Source: an uncultured Candidatus Saccharibacteria bacterium (GTDB taxonomy: Bacteria; Patescibacteriota; Saccharimonadia; Saccharimonadales; Saccharimonadaceae). From it: 64,000 nt of DNA. The translations under genes were made by a program, and so were the position numbers. The first letter of the stretch is position 1; the number at the start of each line of letters is the position of its first letter. The notes under the pieces were generated by a model. The model saw only the letters and a program-made list of their open reading frames with translations, had not been told where the DNA came from and ran no database searches. The stretch is taken from positions 1,174-65,173 of the forward strand of contig CAYOSC010000001.1 in NCBI GenBank assembly GCA_964406525.1. The letters are read 5' to 3'. Below are positions 18,610-49,202 of this stretch, piece after piece.

Positions 18610-19926
18610 CTACTTTGCCGCTGAGGTCACGGTAACCTCCGTAGCATAAGTTCCAGCCGGTAGAGCGGGAGAGATGGAGATACCGACTTGATAAGTATGA
18701 ATCTTTTGGCTATCTACGCCATCAGTAATGGTTTCATCATAAGTTTTAGCTTCTTCGGTAATTGGATCATAAATACCAGTATCACCATTCCAGATCCCCC
18801 AAGCGTTATTGCCGGGTTGTACTGGATTAGTAGATGATACTGGAGAGATTTCTGCAGTAGTGACTTTAGGATCTTTGAGTGATGGTTCTACTGCACTGAG
18901 TAATACTTCATGTTCGCCATTACTAGTAACTTTCGCAATAATGGTGCCTTCAGTAATCCTATTAGTTTCAGCAGTATCACTCATACCAGAAGCGGCATCA
19001 ATAGTTATGACGGTGGGCATGATGACGTTGATATTGCTATCTTTACTCTCCTCCCACATGGGTTTTTCGATTTTCTCTAGCCCACCTAGAGCGATACACC
19101 GTACTGGTAAACCGCCGAGGCGACCGCTACTATACATGTCAACATTGTTACTGTCGAAGCCCAGACGGGAGGCATATTCGGAGTTATGCACCGTGCGCGA
19201 CCAGTATTCACCGTCGGAGCCCACACCGCCATTGCGGCCGTAAGTGACAGAGCCCGCATATGGGAACTTGTACTTATCGCTTCTAATCTTTGTAGAGCCA
19301 TCGGCATTATTGCCAATATTTGCCCTACTTAGCATATTCCTATATTCTGAGTCTGTTGGCAATCTCCAGTCTTTCGGACAAACACTGTTGCCATTGACGC
19401 CACCTACTTCTCCACTCGTGACGCTACTAGCAGCAGCGCCGGCCGTAGCCGCCGTGAAGGAATAGTATACGCCGTTAGTGCTAAATGTATTAGTATCATA
19501 ATATGATTCTGCTTTATAATAATCACTCGACGAGAAGTTTGTGCTACTAAGCGATGTGAGTGTCGTTGGCATAGACCAATCGCTAGAAACATTCGAATCG
19601 TTAGACTTCAAAGTCTTACCACCAGTTAATCTTAGGTTCTCTTGCATCCAACAATTTCCGTCTTCTAGTTTGACGATAGTGTAAGAATTAGGGTCACGAG
19701 AATCCTTAAGCGTCGCCGTATCACCAATGTCCGTGTTCGAGCAGATTTGCTGGGTCATTTCTTGCATATCAGAAATATCGTGAATGGTGCGAGAATCGCC
19801 GGCAGCATAGACTATGGAAGTTTCTGAGGAGGAATTAATAATAATTGTACTTCCCAAAAGTAAGACTCCAATACTAACAAAAGCAAACAAATATTTACTA
19901 TTATAAGGTTGATGTATTTTTAGCAT
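18610..19926 (-). CDS. Secreted FISUMP-domain protein (Fibrobacter succinogenes major paralogous domain, TIGR02145-like) with a C-terminal beta-rich domain
   Basis: MLKIHQ...FAFVSIGVLLLG signal sequence. Then LKDSRDPNSYTIVKLEDGNCWMQENL, YYSFTAATAG, VCPKDWRLPTDSEY, EYWSRT and LPVRCI. The ATG at 19926 follows AAAAGGAGGG. The ORF extension to 20058 runs through the leader structure. Confidence 0.75.
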   Translation of the reverse strand: MLKIHQPYNSKYLFAFVSIGVLLLGSTIIINSSSETSIVYAAGDSRTIHDISDMQEMTQQICSNTDIGDTATLKDSRDPNSYTIVKLEDGNCWMQENLRLTGGKTLKSNDSNVSSDWSMPTTLTSLSSTNFSSSDYYKAESYYDTNTFSTNGVYYSFTAATAGAAASSVTSGEVGGVNGNSVCPKDWRLPTDSEYRNMLSRANIGNNADGSTKIRSDKYKFPYAGSVTYGRNGGVGSDGEYWSRTVHNSEYASRLGFDSNNVDMYSSGRLGGLPVRCIALGGLEKIEKPMWEESKDSNINVIMPTVITIDAASGMSDTAETNRITEGTIIAKVTSNGEHEVLLSAVEPSLKDPKVTTAEISPVSSTNPVQPGNNAWGIWNGDTGIYDPITEEAKTYDETITDGVDSQKIHTYQVGISISPALPAGTYATEVTVTSAAK

Positions 19927-19968
19927 GGAGCCCTCCTTTTGGTCAAATATTTTGCCCTCGGAGGCTGT

Positions 19969-20102
19969 AACAAAAATGGCACCACGAGGGTGTACTAAAC
20001 CTATAAGTCCCTGCAAGATAAAGATGCCTGGACCACTCCTGGTGCCATTTTTTAGCATCTTTGTTTGATCTTGCAGCTTATTTTTGCTATAGATTTAGTA
20101 CA
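19969..20102 (-). promoter_or_regulatory. Structured 5' leader (motif copy 1) with helices A:A' and B:B', the latter followed by a U-run
   Basis: On the minus strand, A tgtactaaatc pairs with A' ggtttagtaca. B aaaaatggcaccaggag pairs with B' ccctcgtggtgccattttt. The architecture is the same as 46939..47090. Confidence 0.6.
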
Positions 20103-20107
20103 TCTTT

Positions 20108-20116
20108 ATTGTAACA
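20108..20116 (-). promoter_or_regulatory. Extended -10 promoter element (TGTTACAAT)
   Basis: Minus-strand tatgTTACAAT, immediately upstream of leader helix strand A. It aligns with TGGTACAAT at the paralogous locus. Confidence 0.45.
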
Positions 20117-20137: not shown

Positions 20138-20165
20138 AAAAATACCTCCGCGCTGGAGGTATTTT
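20138..20165 (-). terminator. Rho-independent terminator after greA (bidirectional shape)
   Basis: aaaaatacctccgcgctggaggtatttt: stem acctcc/ggaggt flanked by A and T runs. Confidence 0.75.
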
Positions 20166-20185
20166 GTCAGTATTAATTGTGAAAC

Positions 20186-20629
20186 CTATTCGATCGATTT
20201 AATAGTGACTTTTTTGCCGTTAAAGGTGAAAGACTCGTCGACTTTGCGGCCGAGAAGTTCTTTACCGATCGGCGATTCGTGAGAGATCTTGCCTTCGAGC
20301 GGATTTGCTTCGACTGGGCCGACCATCGTGTAGGTGAACTTCTTACCGCCCATACTAATGGTGACGGTAGAACCGATATTAACTTTGTCGCTCTTGCGAG
20401 TGCGGATGAGGACGGCGTTCTTCAGAGTGTCTTGGATCTCGAGAATACGGTTTTCGACTTTGTTTTGCTCGGCGCGGGCGTCCGTATATTCTTGGTTCTC
20501 GGAGAGATCACCAAAAGCACGAGCGGTAGCGATACGCTCGGCGATCGCAGGGCGCTGCGCAATTAGTTCAGCTAATTCTTTTTCCAAATCGGCTTTTCCA
20601 GCCTTCGTGAGATTAATCGTCTTTTTCAT
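20186..20629 (-). CDS. greA: Transcription elongation factor GreA
   Basis: MKKTINLTKAGKADLEKEL.EL...RP coiled coil and a C-terminal FKBP-like domain. The ATG at 20629 follows GGGGAG. The ORF extension to 20791 overlaps proS. Confidence 0.9.
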   Translation of the reverse strand: MKKTINLTKAGKADLEKELAELIAQRPAIAERIATARAFGDLSENQEYTDARAEQNKVENRILEIQDTLKNAVLIRTRKSDKVNIGSTVTISMGGKKFTYTMVGPVEANPLEGKISHESPIGKELLGRKVDESFTFNGKKVTIKSIE

Positions 20630-20657
20630 AACTCCCCATAGTTTATTACGGTTTACA

Positions 20658-21896
20658 CTAAAAGTCAATATGGTTAAACGAAAATTCTTCGGCGCGATAA
20701 GTACGAGTTTCGCCAGTACTGCGCTTAGTGACTTCGATCTGATCTTGCTCGAGGTTACGGTCAGAGACGGTAATACGATACGGGAGGCCAATTAGCTCGC
20801 TATCGGCGAATTTCTCACCCGGGCGAACGTCACGATCATCAAAGAGAGTTTCGTCTTCGTGAGCATGATAGAGAGTATTCGCAAACTGCATTCCTTTATC
20901 GCCAATGCCGACAAGATAATATTTATACGGAGCGACTTGTTCAGGCCAGATGAGGCCCTTATCATCAGAAAACTTCTCGGCGATGACTCCCATCACACGC
21001 GAGATACCGATGCCATAGCAACCCATCAAGACGGGCTGACGACGACCATCTTTGTCGGTGAATTGTAGACCGAGCGGCTCAGAATATTTCGTCTTGAGGG
21101 TAAAGATATTGCCAACCTCAGCAGCTTTGGCAGACTGGAGCTCTTCGCGTTTGATATTAAATTCCGCGAGAACTTCGTCATTGAGGACTTCTTCATTCAA
21201 CACGATACTTTTGTCGGTGTTAAAATAAATTGTATCTTCACCGACGTCCGTCAAAGTCTGGAATTCGTGACTATACTTCGCGAAAACTCCACCACTAGCG
21301 AAGGTCTGGAAAGTATCAGCGCCGATCCCGAGGCGATCGTAAATATTCTTGTAAGCCTGCTCGACTTTGTGATAAAACACCTCGTGATCCGACTCAGTGG
21401 CAGAGAAGCTGTAGAGATCTTTCATGATAAACTCGCGCGTGCGCATGATACCCGATTTCGCGCGCAGTTCATTGCGAAACTTCGTCTGGATCTGGTAAGC
21501 GGCAACCGGAAGATCTTTATAGCTTGAAATATAAGTCTTCATGAGTTCGGTGATCGGCTCTTCGTGGGTCGGAGCGAGGCCGAGCTCGCCGCCGGCGGCA
21601 AGCTCAGTCTTAAACCAAATATCCATCTTTTTAATATCCCAACGGTCGGTCTTTTGCCACGGCTCGGGGTTTTGTAGAGAGGAGAGCAAGATTTCTTCAC
21701 AACCAATCTTGTTTAACTCAGCGCGAACGATATTTTTGATATTATCGAGGACGCGCAGCCCCAAGGGTAGATAGTCATAAATTCCAGCAAGCTCCTTGTG
21801 TACGAAGCCAGCGCGGCTGAGGTTTTGAGCGCCGCGGGCGGTCTCGTCTTTGGGCGCGGTGCGGAGAGTTTTGACAAAAGTTTTACTAAAACGCAT
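20658..21896 (-). CDS. proS: Prolyl-tRNA synthetase, bacterial-type N-terminus but short (no INS editing domain)
   Basis: 412 aa. MRFSKTF.KTLR..P.D......Q.L.RAGF N-terminus, class II core and anticodon-binding domain. It is ~150 aa shorter than INS-containing bacterial ProRS. Confidence 0.9.
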   Translation of the reverse strand: MRFSKTFVKTLRTAPKDETARGAQNLSRAGFVHKELAGIYDYLPLGLRVLDNIKNIVRAELNKIGCEEILLSSLQNPEPWQKTDRWDIKKMDIWFKTELAAGGELGLAPTHEEPITELMKTYISSYKDLPVAAYQIQTKFRNELRAKSGIMRTREFIMKDLYSFSATESDHEVFYHKVEQAYKNIYDRLGIGADTFQTFASGGVFAKYSHEFQTLTDVGEDTIYFNTDKSIVLNEEVLNDEVLAEFNIKREELQSAKAAEVGNIFTLKTKYSEPLGLQFTDKDGRRQPVLMGCYGIGISRVMGVIAEKFSDDKGLIWPEQVAPYKYYLVGIGDKGMQFANTLYHAHEDETLFDDRDVRPGEKFADSELIGLPYRITVSDRNLEQDQIEVTKRSTGETRTYRAEEFSFNHIDF

Positions 21897-46904: not shown

Positions 46905-46934
46905 TTTACACGGAATATTTTTGTGTGGTACAAT
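46905..46934 (+). promoter_or_regulatory. Promoter TTTACA-N18-(TGg)TACAAT
   Basis: -35 at 46905..46910 and extended -10 TGGTACAAT at 46926..46934. It aligns with the promoter of the paralogous locus. Confidence 0.55.
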
Positions 46935-46938
46935 GAGA

Positions 46939-47090
46939 GTGTTACAATAATTCATTGCGATAAGAAGGCTGATTTTATTAATGCCGTTTTGCCGATAAAA
47001 ATGACACCGCGAGGATAGTCATGTCGGTAAACTGGTAACCAGCTTTGTCCGATGGATTATTGTAACACCCTCGTGGTGTCATTTTTGTTT
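46939..47090 (+). promoter_or_regulatory. Structured 5' leader (motif copy 2) with helices A:A' and B:B', the latter followed by a U-run
   Basis: A 46939..46953 gtgttacaataattc pairs with A' 47054..47068 ggattattgtaacac (15 bp, 1 G-U). B 46997..47014 pairs with B' 47069..47086 (18 bp, 1 G-U), followed by tttttgttt. Confidence 0.6.
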
Positions 47091-47132
47091 AGTTGCGTTG
47101 CCAAAAGTGGCACTCCTGGAGGTTATATAAAT

Positions 47133-47359
47133 CTAGCACGGCTTTTGCTAGGAAAAACATTGTAGCTTTACATCTCTATAATTCTACTAACGGGGTTCGG
47201 TGGACCTCTCAAAATCGAATCCCTGCCCAAACAATATTTCAAGCAGAGTCCTTTATATAAAAATTGGGCAGGGCCGTGATTTTGGCCCGGTCCAGCCGGA
47301 AAATAACCCCTTTTAGCAGAATTACTAGAGATGTAAAGCAAGAAGCACTAGCAAAAGCC
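47133..47359. mobile_element. ~227-bp near-perfect foldback (MITE-like) element flanked by a 9-bp near-direct repeat
   Basis: Arms pair in perfect blocks of 12, 14, 7, 4, 6, 6, 7 and 10 bp around a ~33-nt AT-rich apex. TATATAAAT (47124..47132) and TATATGAAT (47360..47368) flank it. Confidence 0.55.
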
Positions 47360-47387
47360 TATATGAATCCACAAAAGGAGGGCGATC

Positions 47388-49202
47388 ATGCACTACAAGA
47401 AATGTAAACTTCATAAGCTACATAGTATTCCGATAGGCTTATGTAAGAAAGCATGTTCCTTAATCCGCTTTTCCTCAGGACGCGTTCCTCGAACCCGTCG
47501 TCACGGGTCTCGGCCGCTCATTCTCGGTCGTGACCTCCGAAAGCCTTCGGAAAAGGTATTAAAGGAACATAGCAACTTTTCTACAAAAAGATTGTATTTA
47601 GTTTCTTATAGTATTCCTCTAAGTTGTATGGTCGTTCTCCTTTTGGGACTTGGTGTGATGGTTAATCCAGAATTATTCTTAGTAGATAAGAGTAGTGCCA
47701 TCACGATACAGGATGAATGGGTGGTTAAGAAAAATAGTTCTAGCTCTGGTTATTCTGCTGGTGTTGAAGATGAGAATGATAGTGGCTCTAATGCAGTCGA
47801 AAATGCCGATTCGATCGATGATAGCTTCGGTGGCTTCGGAGGAGATAAAGTAGAACTCTCACAAGAAGATACTGATGCAGGAATAAGCTTACAATCAATA
47901 GTGCCTGCTCCTACCTTAGCCATTACGGTTAGTAATAGTAATCAAACTATTGATGCCGTACAAGGTGGTAATACAGTATATGGCAGTTACAATGTAGGTA
48001 TTACTGGTAGTAATGTAAAAGATTATACCTTAAGTATTAAAGCTGATGCAGTGAATCTAGTATCACCTAGTCAGGCTAGTACTCCTACTACGGTAACTGG
48101 AGCAGGTGGTAAAACTGGCGATAGTATGACTGCTAATACTTGGGGGTATAAGCTTACAGAAACTAGTACAGCAGAATCTAGTTATGGCACACTTAACTAT
48201 GCTAGCCTACCTACTACACTTACACAAATAGCTAATGGTACAGTAGCTTCTCCGTATAACTTATCTGCTAATAAGAAGTTAGTCTTTGCTGCGAAGTTTT
48301 CTGATACAGCTGCTCCTGGTACTTATAAAGGGCATATTACATTAAGTGCCGTAGCTAATCAGGCAGTAGTAGGAGCCATATGGTCTAGTGGGGTTGATTC
48401 TGGCATTACGGATATGCAGGATGTAAGCTCAGGGTTTTGCAGGAACAATAGTAAGATAGCAACGGGCGACACAATTGAGTTGAAGGATAACCGTGATGAT
48501 ACCACTTACACAATAGTAAAGCTGGGGGATAAATGTTGGATGGGACAGAACTTAAGCTTAACTGGGCCAAAGACTCTAGCCTCAGGAGATAGTGATTTTC
48601 CCTCAGGTATGACTTGGGATTTACCAGCAAGTGTTGGCTCAGGTGGAACTAATACTAATAATGTCAATACGAGTAATACCTGGGATACAAGTAACTATAA
48701 CGTAATCCAAATCCGTACTGGTAGTACCAATTTATCTACCAGCTGGAAGAGTGGCTATGGTAATTACTATTCTTGGCCAGCAGCCACGGCAGGAACTGGA
48801 ACTACATCAGTTACTAGTGCTGACGCTTCTGCGAGTATTTGTCCAAAAGGATGGAAACTACCGCCAAACTCTGGTGCAGATTCTTATACAACTTTGACTG
48901 GTACGAAGAGTAGTTGGACAACAGCAACTTTTAATGGTAATTCCGGTGTATATGGTTATTACCTTGGATCGACAGCTACCAATATTTACAAAGGTGCTAA
49001 CTTCTGGCCTGCCGCCGGCGGCGTCTACCAGACTAGTGGCGCACTCGGCGATGCAGGCTCCTACGGCTACTATTGGTCCCGTACTGCCTACTCCAATAGT
49101 AGCTACGCCTACCGCCTGCTCTTCAGTAGCTCCGGTGTGTACCCCACGAGCGACGCCAGTCGCTTCTACGGTTACTCCGTGCGGTGCGTCGCCACGTATT
49201 AA
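47388..49202 (+). CDS. Secreted FISUMP-domain protein (paralog of 18610..19926, domain order permuted); the N-terminal region contains an in-frame repeat-element insertion
   Basis: The ATG follows AAAAGGAGGG, the same RBS as the paralog. Signal-like LSCMVVLLLGLGVMV. C-terminal ELKDNRDDTTYTIVKLGDKCWMGQNL, YYSWPAATAG, ICPKGWKLPPNSG, YYWSRT and YSVRCV. Confidence 0.7.
   Translation: MHYKKCKLHKLHSIPIGLCKKACSLIRFSSGRVPRTRRHGSRPLILGRDLRKPSEKVLKEHSNFSTKRLYLVSYSIPLSCMVVLLLGLGVMVNPELFLVDKSSAITIQDEWVVKKNSSSSGYSAGVEDENDSGSNAVENADSIDDSFGGFGGDKVELSQEDTDAGISLQSIVPAPTLAITVSNSNQTIDAVQGGNTVYGSYNVGITGSNVKDYTLSIKADAVNLVSPSQASTPTTVTGAGGKTGDSMTANTWGYKLTETSTAESSYGTLNYASLPTTLTQIANGTVASPYNLSANKKLVFAAKFSDTAAPGTYKGHITLSAVANQAVVGAIWSSGVDSGITDMQDVSSGFCRNNSKIATGDTIELKDNRDDTTYTIVKLGDKCWMGQNLSLTGPKTLASGDSDFPSGMTWDLPASVGSGGTNTNNVNTSNTWDTSNYNVIQIRTGSTNLSTSWKSGYGNYYSWPAATAGTGTTSVTSADASASICPKGWKLPPNSGADSYTTLTGTKSSWTTATFNGNSGVYGYYLGSTATNIYKGANFWPAAGGVYQTSGALGDAGSYGYYWSRTAYSNSSYAYRLLFSSSGVYPTSDASRFYGYSVRCVATY
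47453..47570. repeat. Palindromic structured repeat element, copy C (inside the CDS, in frame)
   Basis: Outer arms atgttcctt-aat / attaaaggaacat. The core is homologous to copies A and B, with compensatory changes in the closing stem. Confidence 0.75.

Follow-up and report, generated by a model that had tools for sequence, protein, structure and literature searches.

What kind of element precedes two FISUMP genes on opposite strands of one Candidatus Saccharibacteria contig, and what might it do there? The genes are the only two FISUMP genes in the 64,000-nucleotide stretch of contig CAYOSC010000001.1 that we analysed (hereafter, the window, 64 kb), and they show 36% identity over their lectin-like domain. 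Gene 1 (18610..19926, minus strand, ATG at 19926) encodes 438 aa and gene 2 (47388..49202, plus strand, ATG at 47388) encodes 604 aa; both match Pfam Fib_succ_major (E = 1.7e-9 and 5.4e-14, respectively). The 25-mer ACACCCTCGTGGTGYCATTTTTGTT is present exactly twice in the window, with an expectation of 0, and each of the two leader regions folds with z = -5.3 against shuffled sequences. The original prediction, made from the letters alone, saw in both leaders an extended -10 (TGnTACAAT), four pairing strands (A, B, A' and B'), a U-run and a ribosome-binding site (RBS), and read them as a switch; direct reading finds each of these elements at its predicted place. We propose that the leader is very probably a selected, structured, cis-acting RNA with the helices A:A', B:B' and C:C' and a further strand, D, which lies downstream of the U-run, pairs with B' and the end of A', and was absent from the original prediction. 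We also propose that this leader is probably an on/off switch.

The leader belongs to a family. About 58 copies were collected from the window, GTDB genomes and metagenomes, all in gut or rumen Candidatus Saccharibacteria, and every copy is sense-oriented and upstream of a FISUMP-type gene. A scan of GTDB genomes guided by the FISUMP protein gave 80 loci, all but one in metagenome-assembled genomes (MAGs) labelled Candidatus Saccharibacteria or Nanosyncoccus; the FISUMP-bearing MAGs come from animal guts and carry many paralogues each. At about 21 of these loci, B' (with at most 3 substitutions) lies in the sense direction 6-130 nt upstream of the FISUMP open reading frame (ORF), and essentially nowhere else; the full leader architecture is visible by eye in each of them. 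The metagenomes were scanned with the pattern CACCCTYGYGGTGYCATTTTT, which matched 43 contigs. About 32 of these have the full architecture, defined as a B:B' duplex of -22 kcal/mol or lower plus an upstream hairpin of -43 or lower, and the remainder are chance matches. An nhmmer profile added 8 more diverged copies (L009, L016, L022, L026, L041, L042, L058 and L080). At least 6-7 copies per genome are found in the MAGs CAYMCF01 and CAPHDI01. As for the genes themselves, all eight of the downstream proteins that were translated end in the FISUMP signature ICP..W.LP...VRC, while a Pfam scan of four downstream proteins gave two matches to Fib_succ_major, both below the cut-off, and two proteins with no match. 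The scan of viral contigs for the B' pattern gave 0 matches, so there is no phage link.

Six metagenome contigs (L104, L119, L087, L102, L110 and L118) end at or just after B', which is consistent with assembly breaks at a multi-copy conserved 20-25-mer. A copy of the A' end plus B' (ACACCCTCGTGGTGCCATTTTTGTA, L032:1679-1713) lies downstream of a FISUMP gene, preceded by G+C-rich sequence and with no long hairpin; truncation of a leader or a chimeric assembly might account for it.

In the order of transcription, the strands of the leader run A, C, B, C', A', B'. In about 50 related leaders, 4-5 nt separate strand A from a preceding extended -10 of the form TGnTAnAAT (TRTGnTAnAAT), in agreement with the claim that A forms the predicted 5′ end of the transcript. 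In the window, where all locus 1 features are on the minus strand and all locus 2 features on the plus strand, this element reads TGTTACAAT at locus 1 (20116..20108) and TGGTACAAT at locus 2 (46926..46934, found by promoter scan and in the sequence, with TTTACA 18 nt upstream). A usually starts with (G)UG and A' ends with CAC(C). Together they form a near-perfect helix of 16-19 bp in 50 of 52 leaders, with a sequence that differs at every locus. At locus 1, A is UGUACUAAAUCUAUAG (20102..20087), the 5'-terminal strand of a long hairpin, paired in the minimum free energy (MFE) fold with A', CUUAUAGGUUUAGUACA (20007..19991), a strand placed by that fold and by family covariation; at locus 2, A is GUGUUACAAUAAUUCAUUG (46939..46957) and A' spans 47050..47069, and both the MFE fold and duplex prediction (-24.3 kcal/mol) join them.

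B has the consensus AAAUGGCACCAUGAGG, and B', CUCGUGGUGCCAUUUUU, begins 0-4 nt after A', so that A' does abut B' as had been proposed. The two strands pair over 17-18 bp that are conserved in sequence and are followed by U5. At locus 1, B is AAAAAAUGGCACCAGGAGUGG (20053..20033) and B' is CTCGTGGTGCCATTTTT (19988..19972, supported by sequence and family covariation; CUCGUGGUGCCAUUUUU with the U-run), separated from A' by a CC junction (19990-19989) directly 5' of B'. At locus 2, B is AAAAAUGACACCGCGAGG (46997..47014) and B' with its U-run reads CUCGUGGUGUCAUUUUU (47070..47086). Common to the two loci are AAAAAUGRCACC in B and GGUGYCAUUUUU in B'. The predicted duplexes have -28 and -30 kcal/mol at loci 1 and 2. 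A continuous helix of 18-19 bp had been claimed for both; locus 2 has an 18-bp duplex, but that of locus 1 is discontinuous, consisting of 13+3+2 bp with a G.G mismatch.

The pairing has been kept while the sequences changed. With only Watson-Crick seeds used to set an ungapped register, about 95% of the pairs at positions 3-16 of helix A are Watson-Crick and each column contains all four pair types, and B:B' is 85-100% paired over its 17-18 positions, with swaps at three of them (A-U/G-C, G-C/A-U and G-C/A-U) and a conserved U.G. The compensatory G-C to A-U change first noticed between the two window loci (GGCACC/GGUGCC versus GACACC/GGUGUC) is present as described. In a MAFFT alignment of 48 leaders, 92.3% of the cells are paired, as against 72.4% in column shuffles, none of 500 of which reaches the observed value; sliding the partner by 1-3 columns lowers the fraction to 39-49%. 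Two-sided changes occur at 14 of the 16 pairs of helix A and at 9 of the 18 pairs of helix B. RNAalifold predicts B:B' independently, and the diverged members add the compensations CGCAG/CUGCG, CGCUGGG/CCUAGCG, CGUAGC/GCUACG and CGCAU/AUGCG. Homologous leaders in related Saccharibacteria are found to keep both pairings.

Since a DNA-level repeat would show no G.U bias, the departures from Watson-Crick pairing also tell in which molecule the helices act. G.U exceeds A.C by 52:6 in helix A (p = 4e-8) and by 78:17 in helix B (p = 9e-6), with base composition allowed for. Therefore, the helices act in the sense-strand RNA, and the view that A:A' and B:B' are selected RNA helices of the coding-sense strand is borne out by covariation and wobble asymmetry alike.

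A:A' is not an isolated helix. In the MFE folds, it is the base of a hairpin of 115-140 nt, about 130 nt in the two window leaders, whose inner helices, C:C', lead to an apical loop that contains B. The z-scores of this long hairpin range from -5.5 to -11.6, with a median of -7.8, and all 52 leaders lie below -5. The inner helices are present in all 52, each with a locus-specific sequence. At locus 1, C provides two inner helix segments of the 5' arm (20077..20054) and C' the inner helix of the 3' arm (20028..20011); at locus 2, the corresponding strands are 46982..46996 and 47023..47037. The 5' arm exceeds the 3' arm by about 11 nt, and a run of at least four U lies between A and B, in the 5' arm, in 43 of the 52 leaders (for example, 46972..46979, plus strand), compared with 7 of 52 in the 3' arm. 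This U-rich run may be a single-stranded binding or cleavage site. In the alignment, no conserved columns were found outside the promoter, B and B', and the interior varies in length and in sequence. The interior had been described as non-conserved and without an aptamer-like sequence; both statements hold for the sequence, but the interior is not unstructured, given the C:C' helices of the MFE folds.

Three familiar kinds of leader were considered and set aside. A metabolite riboswitch finds no conserved ligand-binding core in the alignment and no Rfam riboswitch match; across the whole window, the gathering score is attained by no Rfam 15 family, and in a permissive search the best hit in either leader was Phe_leader, at an E-value of 0.19 and in the wrong strand and region. 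A leader-peptide attenuator is rejected, an ORF of at least 6 codons preceded by a Shine-Dalgarno (SD) sequence being present in only 9 of 52 leaders, with unrelated peptides. An RNA thermometer is likewise rejected on equilibrium prediction only: the median free-energy difference between the two folds discussed next is 8.2, 7.9 and 7.8 kcal/mol at 25, 37 and 42 C, and the predicted equilibrium balance does not move between 25 and 60 C.

The strand order A<C<B<C'<A'<B' makes the helices cross. Because the linkers between B and C/C' are about 3-5 nt and B' comes directly after A', a 17-bp B:B' helix should be unable to form as long as the adjoining hairpin of about 40 bp is intact. On these geometric grounds, the hairpin and B:B' would be mutually exclusive, and a pseudoknot with all helices at once, which was also considered, is ruled out by the same short linkers and the same abutment. 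The original prediction had likewise held that the two helices could not readily coexist, and in this it agrees with our reading; what it had not seen is that B:B' competes with the 115-140-nt hairpin as a whole, and that the exclusion would come from geometry instead of strand competition. Constrained folding gives a free-energy difference (ddG, T-state minus hairpin state) with a median of +7.9 kcal/mol and a range from -10 to +14, the window loci standing at +4.7 (locus 1) and -0.4 kcal/mol (locus 2). The hairpin state is thus favoured in the median, and the stabilities of the two folds are fairly close. When the 5' arm is removed, B:B' appears in the MFE fold of all four leaders inspected (both window loci, L021 and L088); in L021 and at window locus 2, the helix lengthens to 20-24 bp. 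The distance from B to B' is held to 39-61 nt, with a median of 51.

The third partner of this system is strand D, which reads (A/G)UGGCACC(A/G)C..GGG and is complementary to B'. It lies 5-30 nt after the U-run, or more than 90 nt after it in some loci. In about half of the loci, D also pairs into the A' end, and in L030, L039, L061, L085, L101 and L116 it extends into an A-like stretch that matches contiguous A'B'. The predicted duplex of D with its own A' end and B' has a mean of -19.0 kcal/mol, which falls to -12.8 when shuffled downstream sequence takes the place of D (p = 5e-10) and to -16.9 with the B' of other loci (p = 5e-7). B:B', at -24.5 kcal/mol, is stronger than D:B'. For full-length leaders, the predicted ground state usually combines the long hairpin with a B':D hairpin, and the latter is present in most of their MFE folds. 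We also observe that the wobbles of helix A are directional, with U in A and G in A' 48 times and the reverse 4 times; such directional U.G wobbles might favour the takeover of A' by D.

In the window, D is AAAAGUGGCACUCCUGGAGG at locus 2 (47103..47122), B-like and B'-complementary, and GCCUCCGAGGGC at locus 1 (19965..19954), where it is short and weak. Here, CGAGGG is complementary to CCCUCG of B', CCUCC is an anti-SD sequence, and pairing between anti-SD and SD is present in the MFE fold. The two loci have an identical SD region, AAAAGGAGGG (19940..19931 at locus 1, 47373..47382 at locus 2). The RBS had been placed directly after the U-run; this is so at locus 1, but at locus 2 it is found 286 nt further on, behind an inserted 220-nt hairpin. 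In predicted folds of L014, L030, L031, L038, L067 and L101, the SD is more open with B' present than with B' absent, because D contains a CUCC anti-SD sequence. Pairing of B' with the translation start region (GGGCACCAUG), a candidate we considered, is clear only in L027 and L034 and is not general.

How might these parts work together? We tentatively propose that they form a cis-acting, two-state 5' leader RNA specific to the FISUMP surface-protein genes of gut and rumen Saccharibacteria, a model that we regard as a serious possibility that falls somewhat short of probable. The termination mechanism set out here calls for about the same reserve, or slightly more. Transcription would start at the first nucleotides of A, the presumed start site. 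As A' is transcribed ahead of B', folding of the long hairpin should come first, before B' leaves the polymerase, and should hold B too far from B' to pair. Polymerase would then read past the U-run AUUUUUGU, which would be the ON state, after which D would capture B' and lock it; in a subset of leaders, the D:B' pairing would keep the anti-SD in D off the Shine-Dalgarno, leaving the mRNA translatable. If, on the other hand, the 5' arm (A plus C) were bound, cleaved or degraded, B would be free to form, with the emerging B', a G+C-rich helix directly before AUUUUUGU, and termination would follow, giving the OFF state. In finished mRNAs, B would displace the weaker D from B'. The U-rich run is the only conserved candidate site for whatever acts on the 5' arm, and B' would be the pivot strand of the leader.

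B:B' resembles a canonical intrinsic (Rho-independent) terminator in being a G+C-rich stem, with GGCACC/GGUGCC in it and AUUUUUGU directly after it in nearly all copies. In addition, the leader has, like an attenuator, two covarying crossing structures with a junction of 0-4 nt, one of them terminator-like. Unlike in an attenuator, B and B' have no nucleotides in common with A, C, C' or A' other than 1-3 nt at the CACC junction. A conserved mini-hairpin, CACC-loop-GGUG, straddles the A'/B' junction before the U-run (47065..47079, plus strand; 19993..19979, minus strand); a terminator scan calls it in locus 2, and it is too weak to terminate alone but could seed the switch.

Several observations weigh against the termination switch. 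The loop enclosed by B:B' is 39-61 nt, compared with about 3-8 nt in a canonical terminator, and because of this loop a consensus terminator scan does not call B:B'-U5: it called none in locus 1 and only a 5-bp mini-hairpin in locus 2. Termination would need an additional factor, since the long hairpin folds earlier and is usually more stable, and the family alignment contains no conserved binding site in the leader besides the U-rich run. The effect of D on the accessibility of the SD is confined to a subset of leaders and is reversed in L027 and L028. As for the counts given above, the metagenome copies were picked by the B' pattern, which inflates the conservation of B' and not that of B, A or A', and the leaders are related by descent, so that counts of cells overstate the number of independent events. 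Finally, the FISUMP orthologue L001 from mouse gut, at a locus reached through the homologue P0024, does not have the leader and is preceded by a short, plain, unstructured one instead; for three homologues known from NCBI only (P0002, P0005 and P0008), no encoding contig was found. The leader is therefore not essential for FISUMP expression; though common, it does not stand before every FISUMP gene.

Much of this evidence could also be read in another way, in which the leader is a constitutive stabilising or processing element. A:A' stacked on B':D would make a quasi-continuous duplex of about 35 bp that hides the 5' triphosphate, protecting the mRNA from 5'-end-dependent decay or serving as a substrate of RNase III. 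B:B' would then represent refolding after the 5' arm is cut, capping the processed 5' end or stopping the translation of mRNA committed to decay. The location of A at the predicted +1, its nearly constant length of 16-19 bp and the predicted ground state of full-length leaders, the long hairpin plus B':D, all suit this explanation. The pairing of D into the A' end in about half of the loci would be expected if it follows the removal of A, the stability order B:B' > D:B' fits hierarchical refolding, and the single-stranded U-rich run in the 5' arm of 43 of 52 leaders would suit an endonuclease. However, a short 5' stem-loop would suffice for a simple stabiliser, and such a function leaves unexplained why U5 is conserved beyond the pairing need of B (columns 113-115 are paired in only 65-80%) and why B is positioned in the loop of the same hairpin. 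We consider this explanation unlikely, if well worth keeping in view. Action in trans is a good deal less likely still: the B loop of a finished leader might pair with the B' of other nascent or finished FISUMP leaders, with termination or release of D in trans as the outcome, and hence family-wide feedback or mutually exclusive expression of the surface lectins. In its favour, all the paralogues of a genome have B, B' and D conserved in sequence, A and C being unique at each locus, B should be unable, given the 3-5-nt linkers, to reach its own B' while the hairpin stands, and a genome can hold at least 6-7 copies (MAGs CAYMCF01 and CAPHDI01). Yet a closed loop of about 25 nt could not form the covarying 17-18 bp without melting C:C', and the sequence conservation can be accounted for by the three-way constraint B:B':D on its own. 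An elaborated form of the idea, slightly more improbable again, is a topologically gated RNA-RNA device, in which the shared B is presented on a locus-specific stalk and abundant leaders silence or terminate other paralogues in trans. If it were true, a regulator-poor, ultrasmall epibiont would have mutually exclusive expression of its surface lectins, resembling antigenic variation, with no protein regulator.

The remaining explanations are set at the level of DNA. Inverted repeats shared by many surface-protein loci are known from the invertons of Bacteroides, surface lectins are typical targets of phase variation, and B/B' are conserved inverted repeats at many surface-protein loci, so that A/A' and B/B' might be thought to be sites for a recombinase or a transcription factor, as in an invertible segment. 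We regard this as very improbable. The mismatches are biased to sense-strand G.U (52:6 and 78:17), the internal orientation is the same in about 58 of 58 copies, neither pair of repeats encloses the promoter, and the spacers (39-61 bp between B and B', 5-30 bp between B' and D) are too short for recombinase synapsis. Moreover, no common protein could read A/A', because these differ at every locus. An invertible promoter or inverton in particular is largely refuted by the strand bias, the uniform orientation, the promoter outside the repeats and the gene-specific placement. Equally improbable is a mobile palindrome like a miniature inverted-repeat transposable element (MITE), which would have spread with its promoter before FISUMP genes and would have no regulatory RNA function. 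The leader is indeed multi-copy and palindromic, and other long palindromic inserts are found in leaders (47140..47359 in the window; L094, L105 and L108). Against this origin, the arms A and C are unrelated between copies and their pairing is nevertheless kept by compensatory changes, all copies agree in their position and orientation with respect to a FISUMP start codon, and there are no copies elsewhere in the window. A MITE-like element, which should leave near-identical copies at unrelated sites, was accordingly rejected: the arms are locus-unique, and all copies are upstream of FISUMP genes.

Some features around the two leaders deserve description. The insert of locus 2 (47140..47359, plus strand, between D and the SD; fold z = -11) is a near-perfect hairpin of 220 nt and an optional module outside the core leader. 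Its core, CGGTGGAnCTCTCAAAATCGA, has a related core at the equivalent leader position in L124 (1242-1262); L124 gave the only further copy, and none was found elsewhere in the window. Other long palindromic inserts occupy the same leader place in L094, L105, L108 and L089/L107/L122. At locus 1, the database gene call P0001 (482 aa, 18610..20058, minus strand) takes as its start an ATG that lies within strand B, and so runs through the leader. Homologues of FISUMP-1 align from a conserved start, MLKIH(K/Q)PY; since they share it, the 482-aa ORF call, which continues into the leader, is artefactual, and FISUMP-1 starts at 19926. The first codons, ATG CTA AAA ATA CAT AAA (MLKIHK; 19926..19909, minus strand), are conserved at the nucleotide level across species whose proteins are 40-50% identical, and these codons may be part of the regulatory region. 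The gene greA (20186..20659, minus strand) lies upstream of the leader promoter, and, by eye, it is followed by a hairpin with a T-run (ACCTCCagcgcGGAGGTATTTTTG, about 20140..20168, minus strand) just before that promoter; the terminator scan did not call it. With this hairpin and T-run between greA and the promoter, the leader appears to be the beginning of a separate transcription unit.

Patescibacteria, for which the name Candidate Phyla Radiation (CPR) is also in use, have tiny genomes, and to our knowledge almost nothing is known of their gene regulation. In this poorly understood phylum, the FISUMP leader is a new and well-supported RNA family of the attenuator type with an unusual design of its expression platform: two covarying long helices that would exclude each other by geometry, one of them at the 5' end, and a third strand that can take B'. 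It controls, or at least precedes in multiple copies, a large family of lectin-like surface proteins, which plausibly mediate attachment to host bacteria or to gut glycans. If the switch is real, it would offer a testable handle on gene regulation in Saccharibacteria and a new type of expression platform, and B'-U5 would serve as a sequence tag for FISUMP transcription units in metagenomes. Full-text literature on Saccharibacteria (riboswitch, FISUMP) gave no description of the leader, and a 2024 perspective treats riboswitches only as prospective tools to be introduced into these bacteria (PMC11665869).

The terminator/antiterminator attenuators (trp, pyr, T-box and riboswitch platforms) are like the FISUMP leader in having two exclusive 5'-leader folds between the promoter and the RBS, one with a G+C-rich helix and a U-tract and the other allowing read-through. 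The FISUMP leader differs in that its folds share almost no nucleotides, so that exclusion would be geometric, and in its terminator loop of 39-61 nt; furthermore, no conserved aptamer, leader peptide, specifier, T-box-like element or protein-binding motif was found in it. In the pyrG leader of Bacillus subtilis, reiterative G addition lengthens the transcript at its 5' end, which pairs with the 5' strand of the terminator. There too, the extreme 5' end is part of a structure that prevents the terminator, whereas in the FISUMP leader a fixed A of 16-19 nt pairs with A', outside the terminator.

Two other groups of RNAs are similar with regard to the 5' end. The ompA, ermC and aprE leaders are mRNA stabilisers with 5'-terminal stem-loops, which are short single hairpins. 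Like the FISUMP leader, they have a helix that starts a few nucleotides from the 5' end of the transcript, but they are without conserved alternative pairings such as B:B' or B':D. The hok-type mRNAs of type I toxin-antitoxin systems have a 5'-3' fold-back and refold sequentially after processing. As in the FISUMP leader, their 5' end lies in a long-range helix and several complementary boxes pair alternately, and their refolding after processing changes the accessibility of the SD, as we propose here. Unlike them, the FISUMP leader has no toxin ORF and no antisense RNA gene, one of its alternative helices is followed by a U-tract, and the partner of its 5' end lies within the leader, while that of hok lies at the 3' end of the mRNA.

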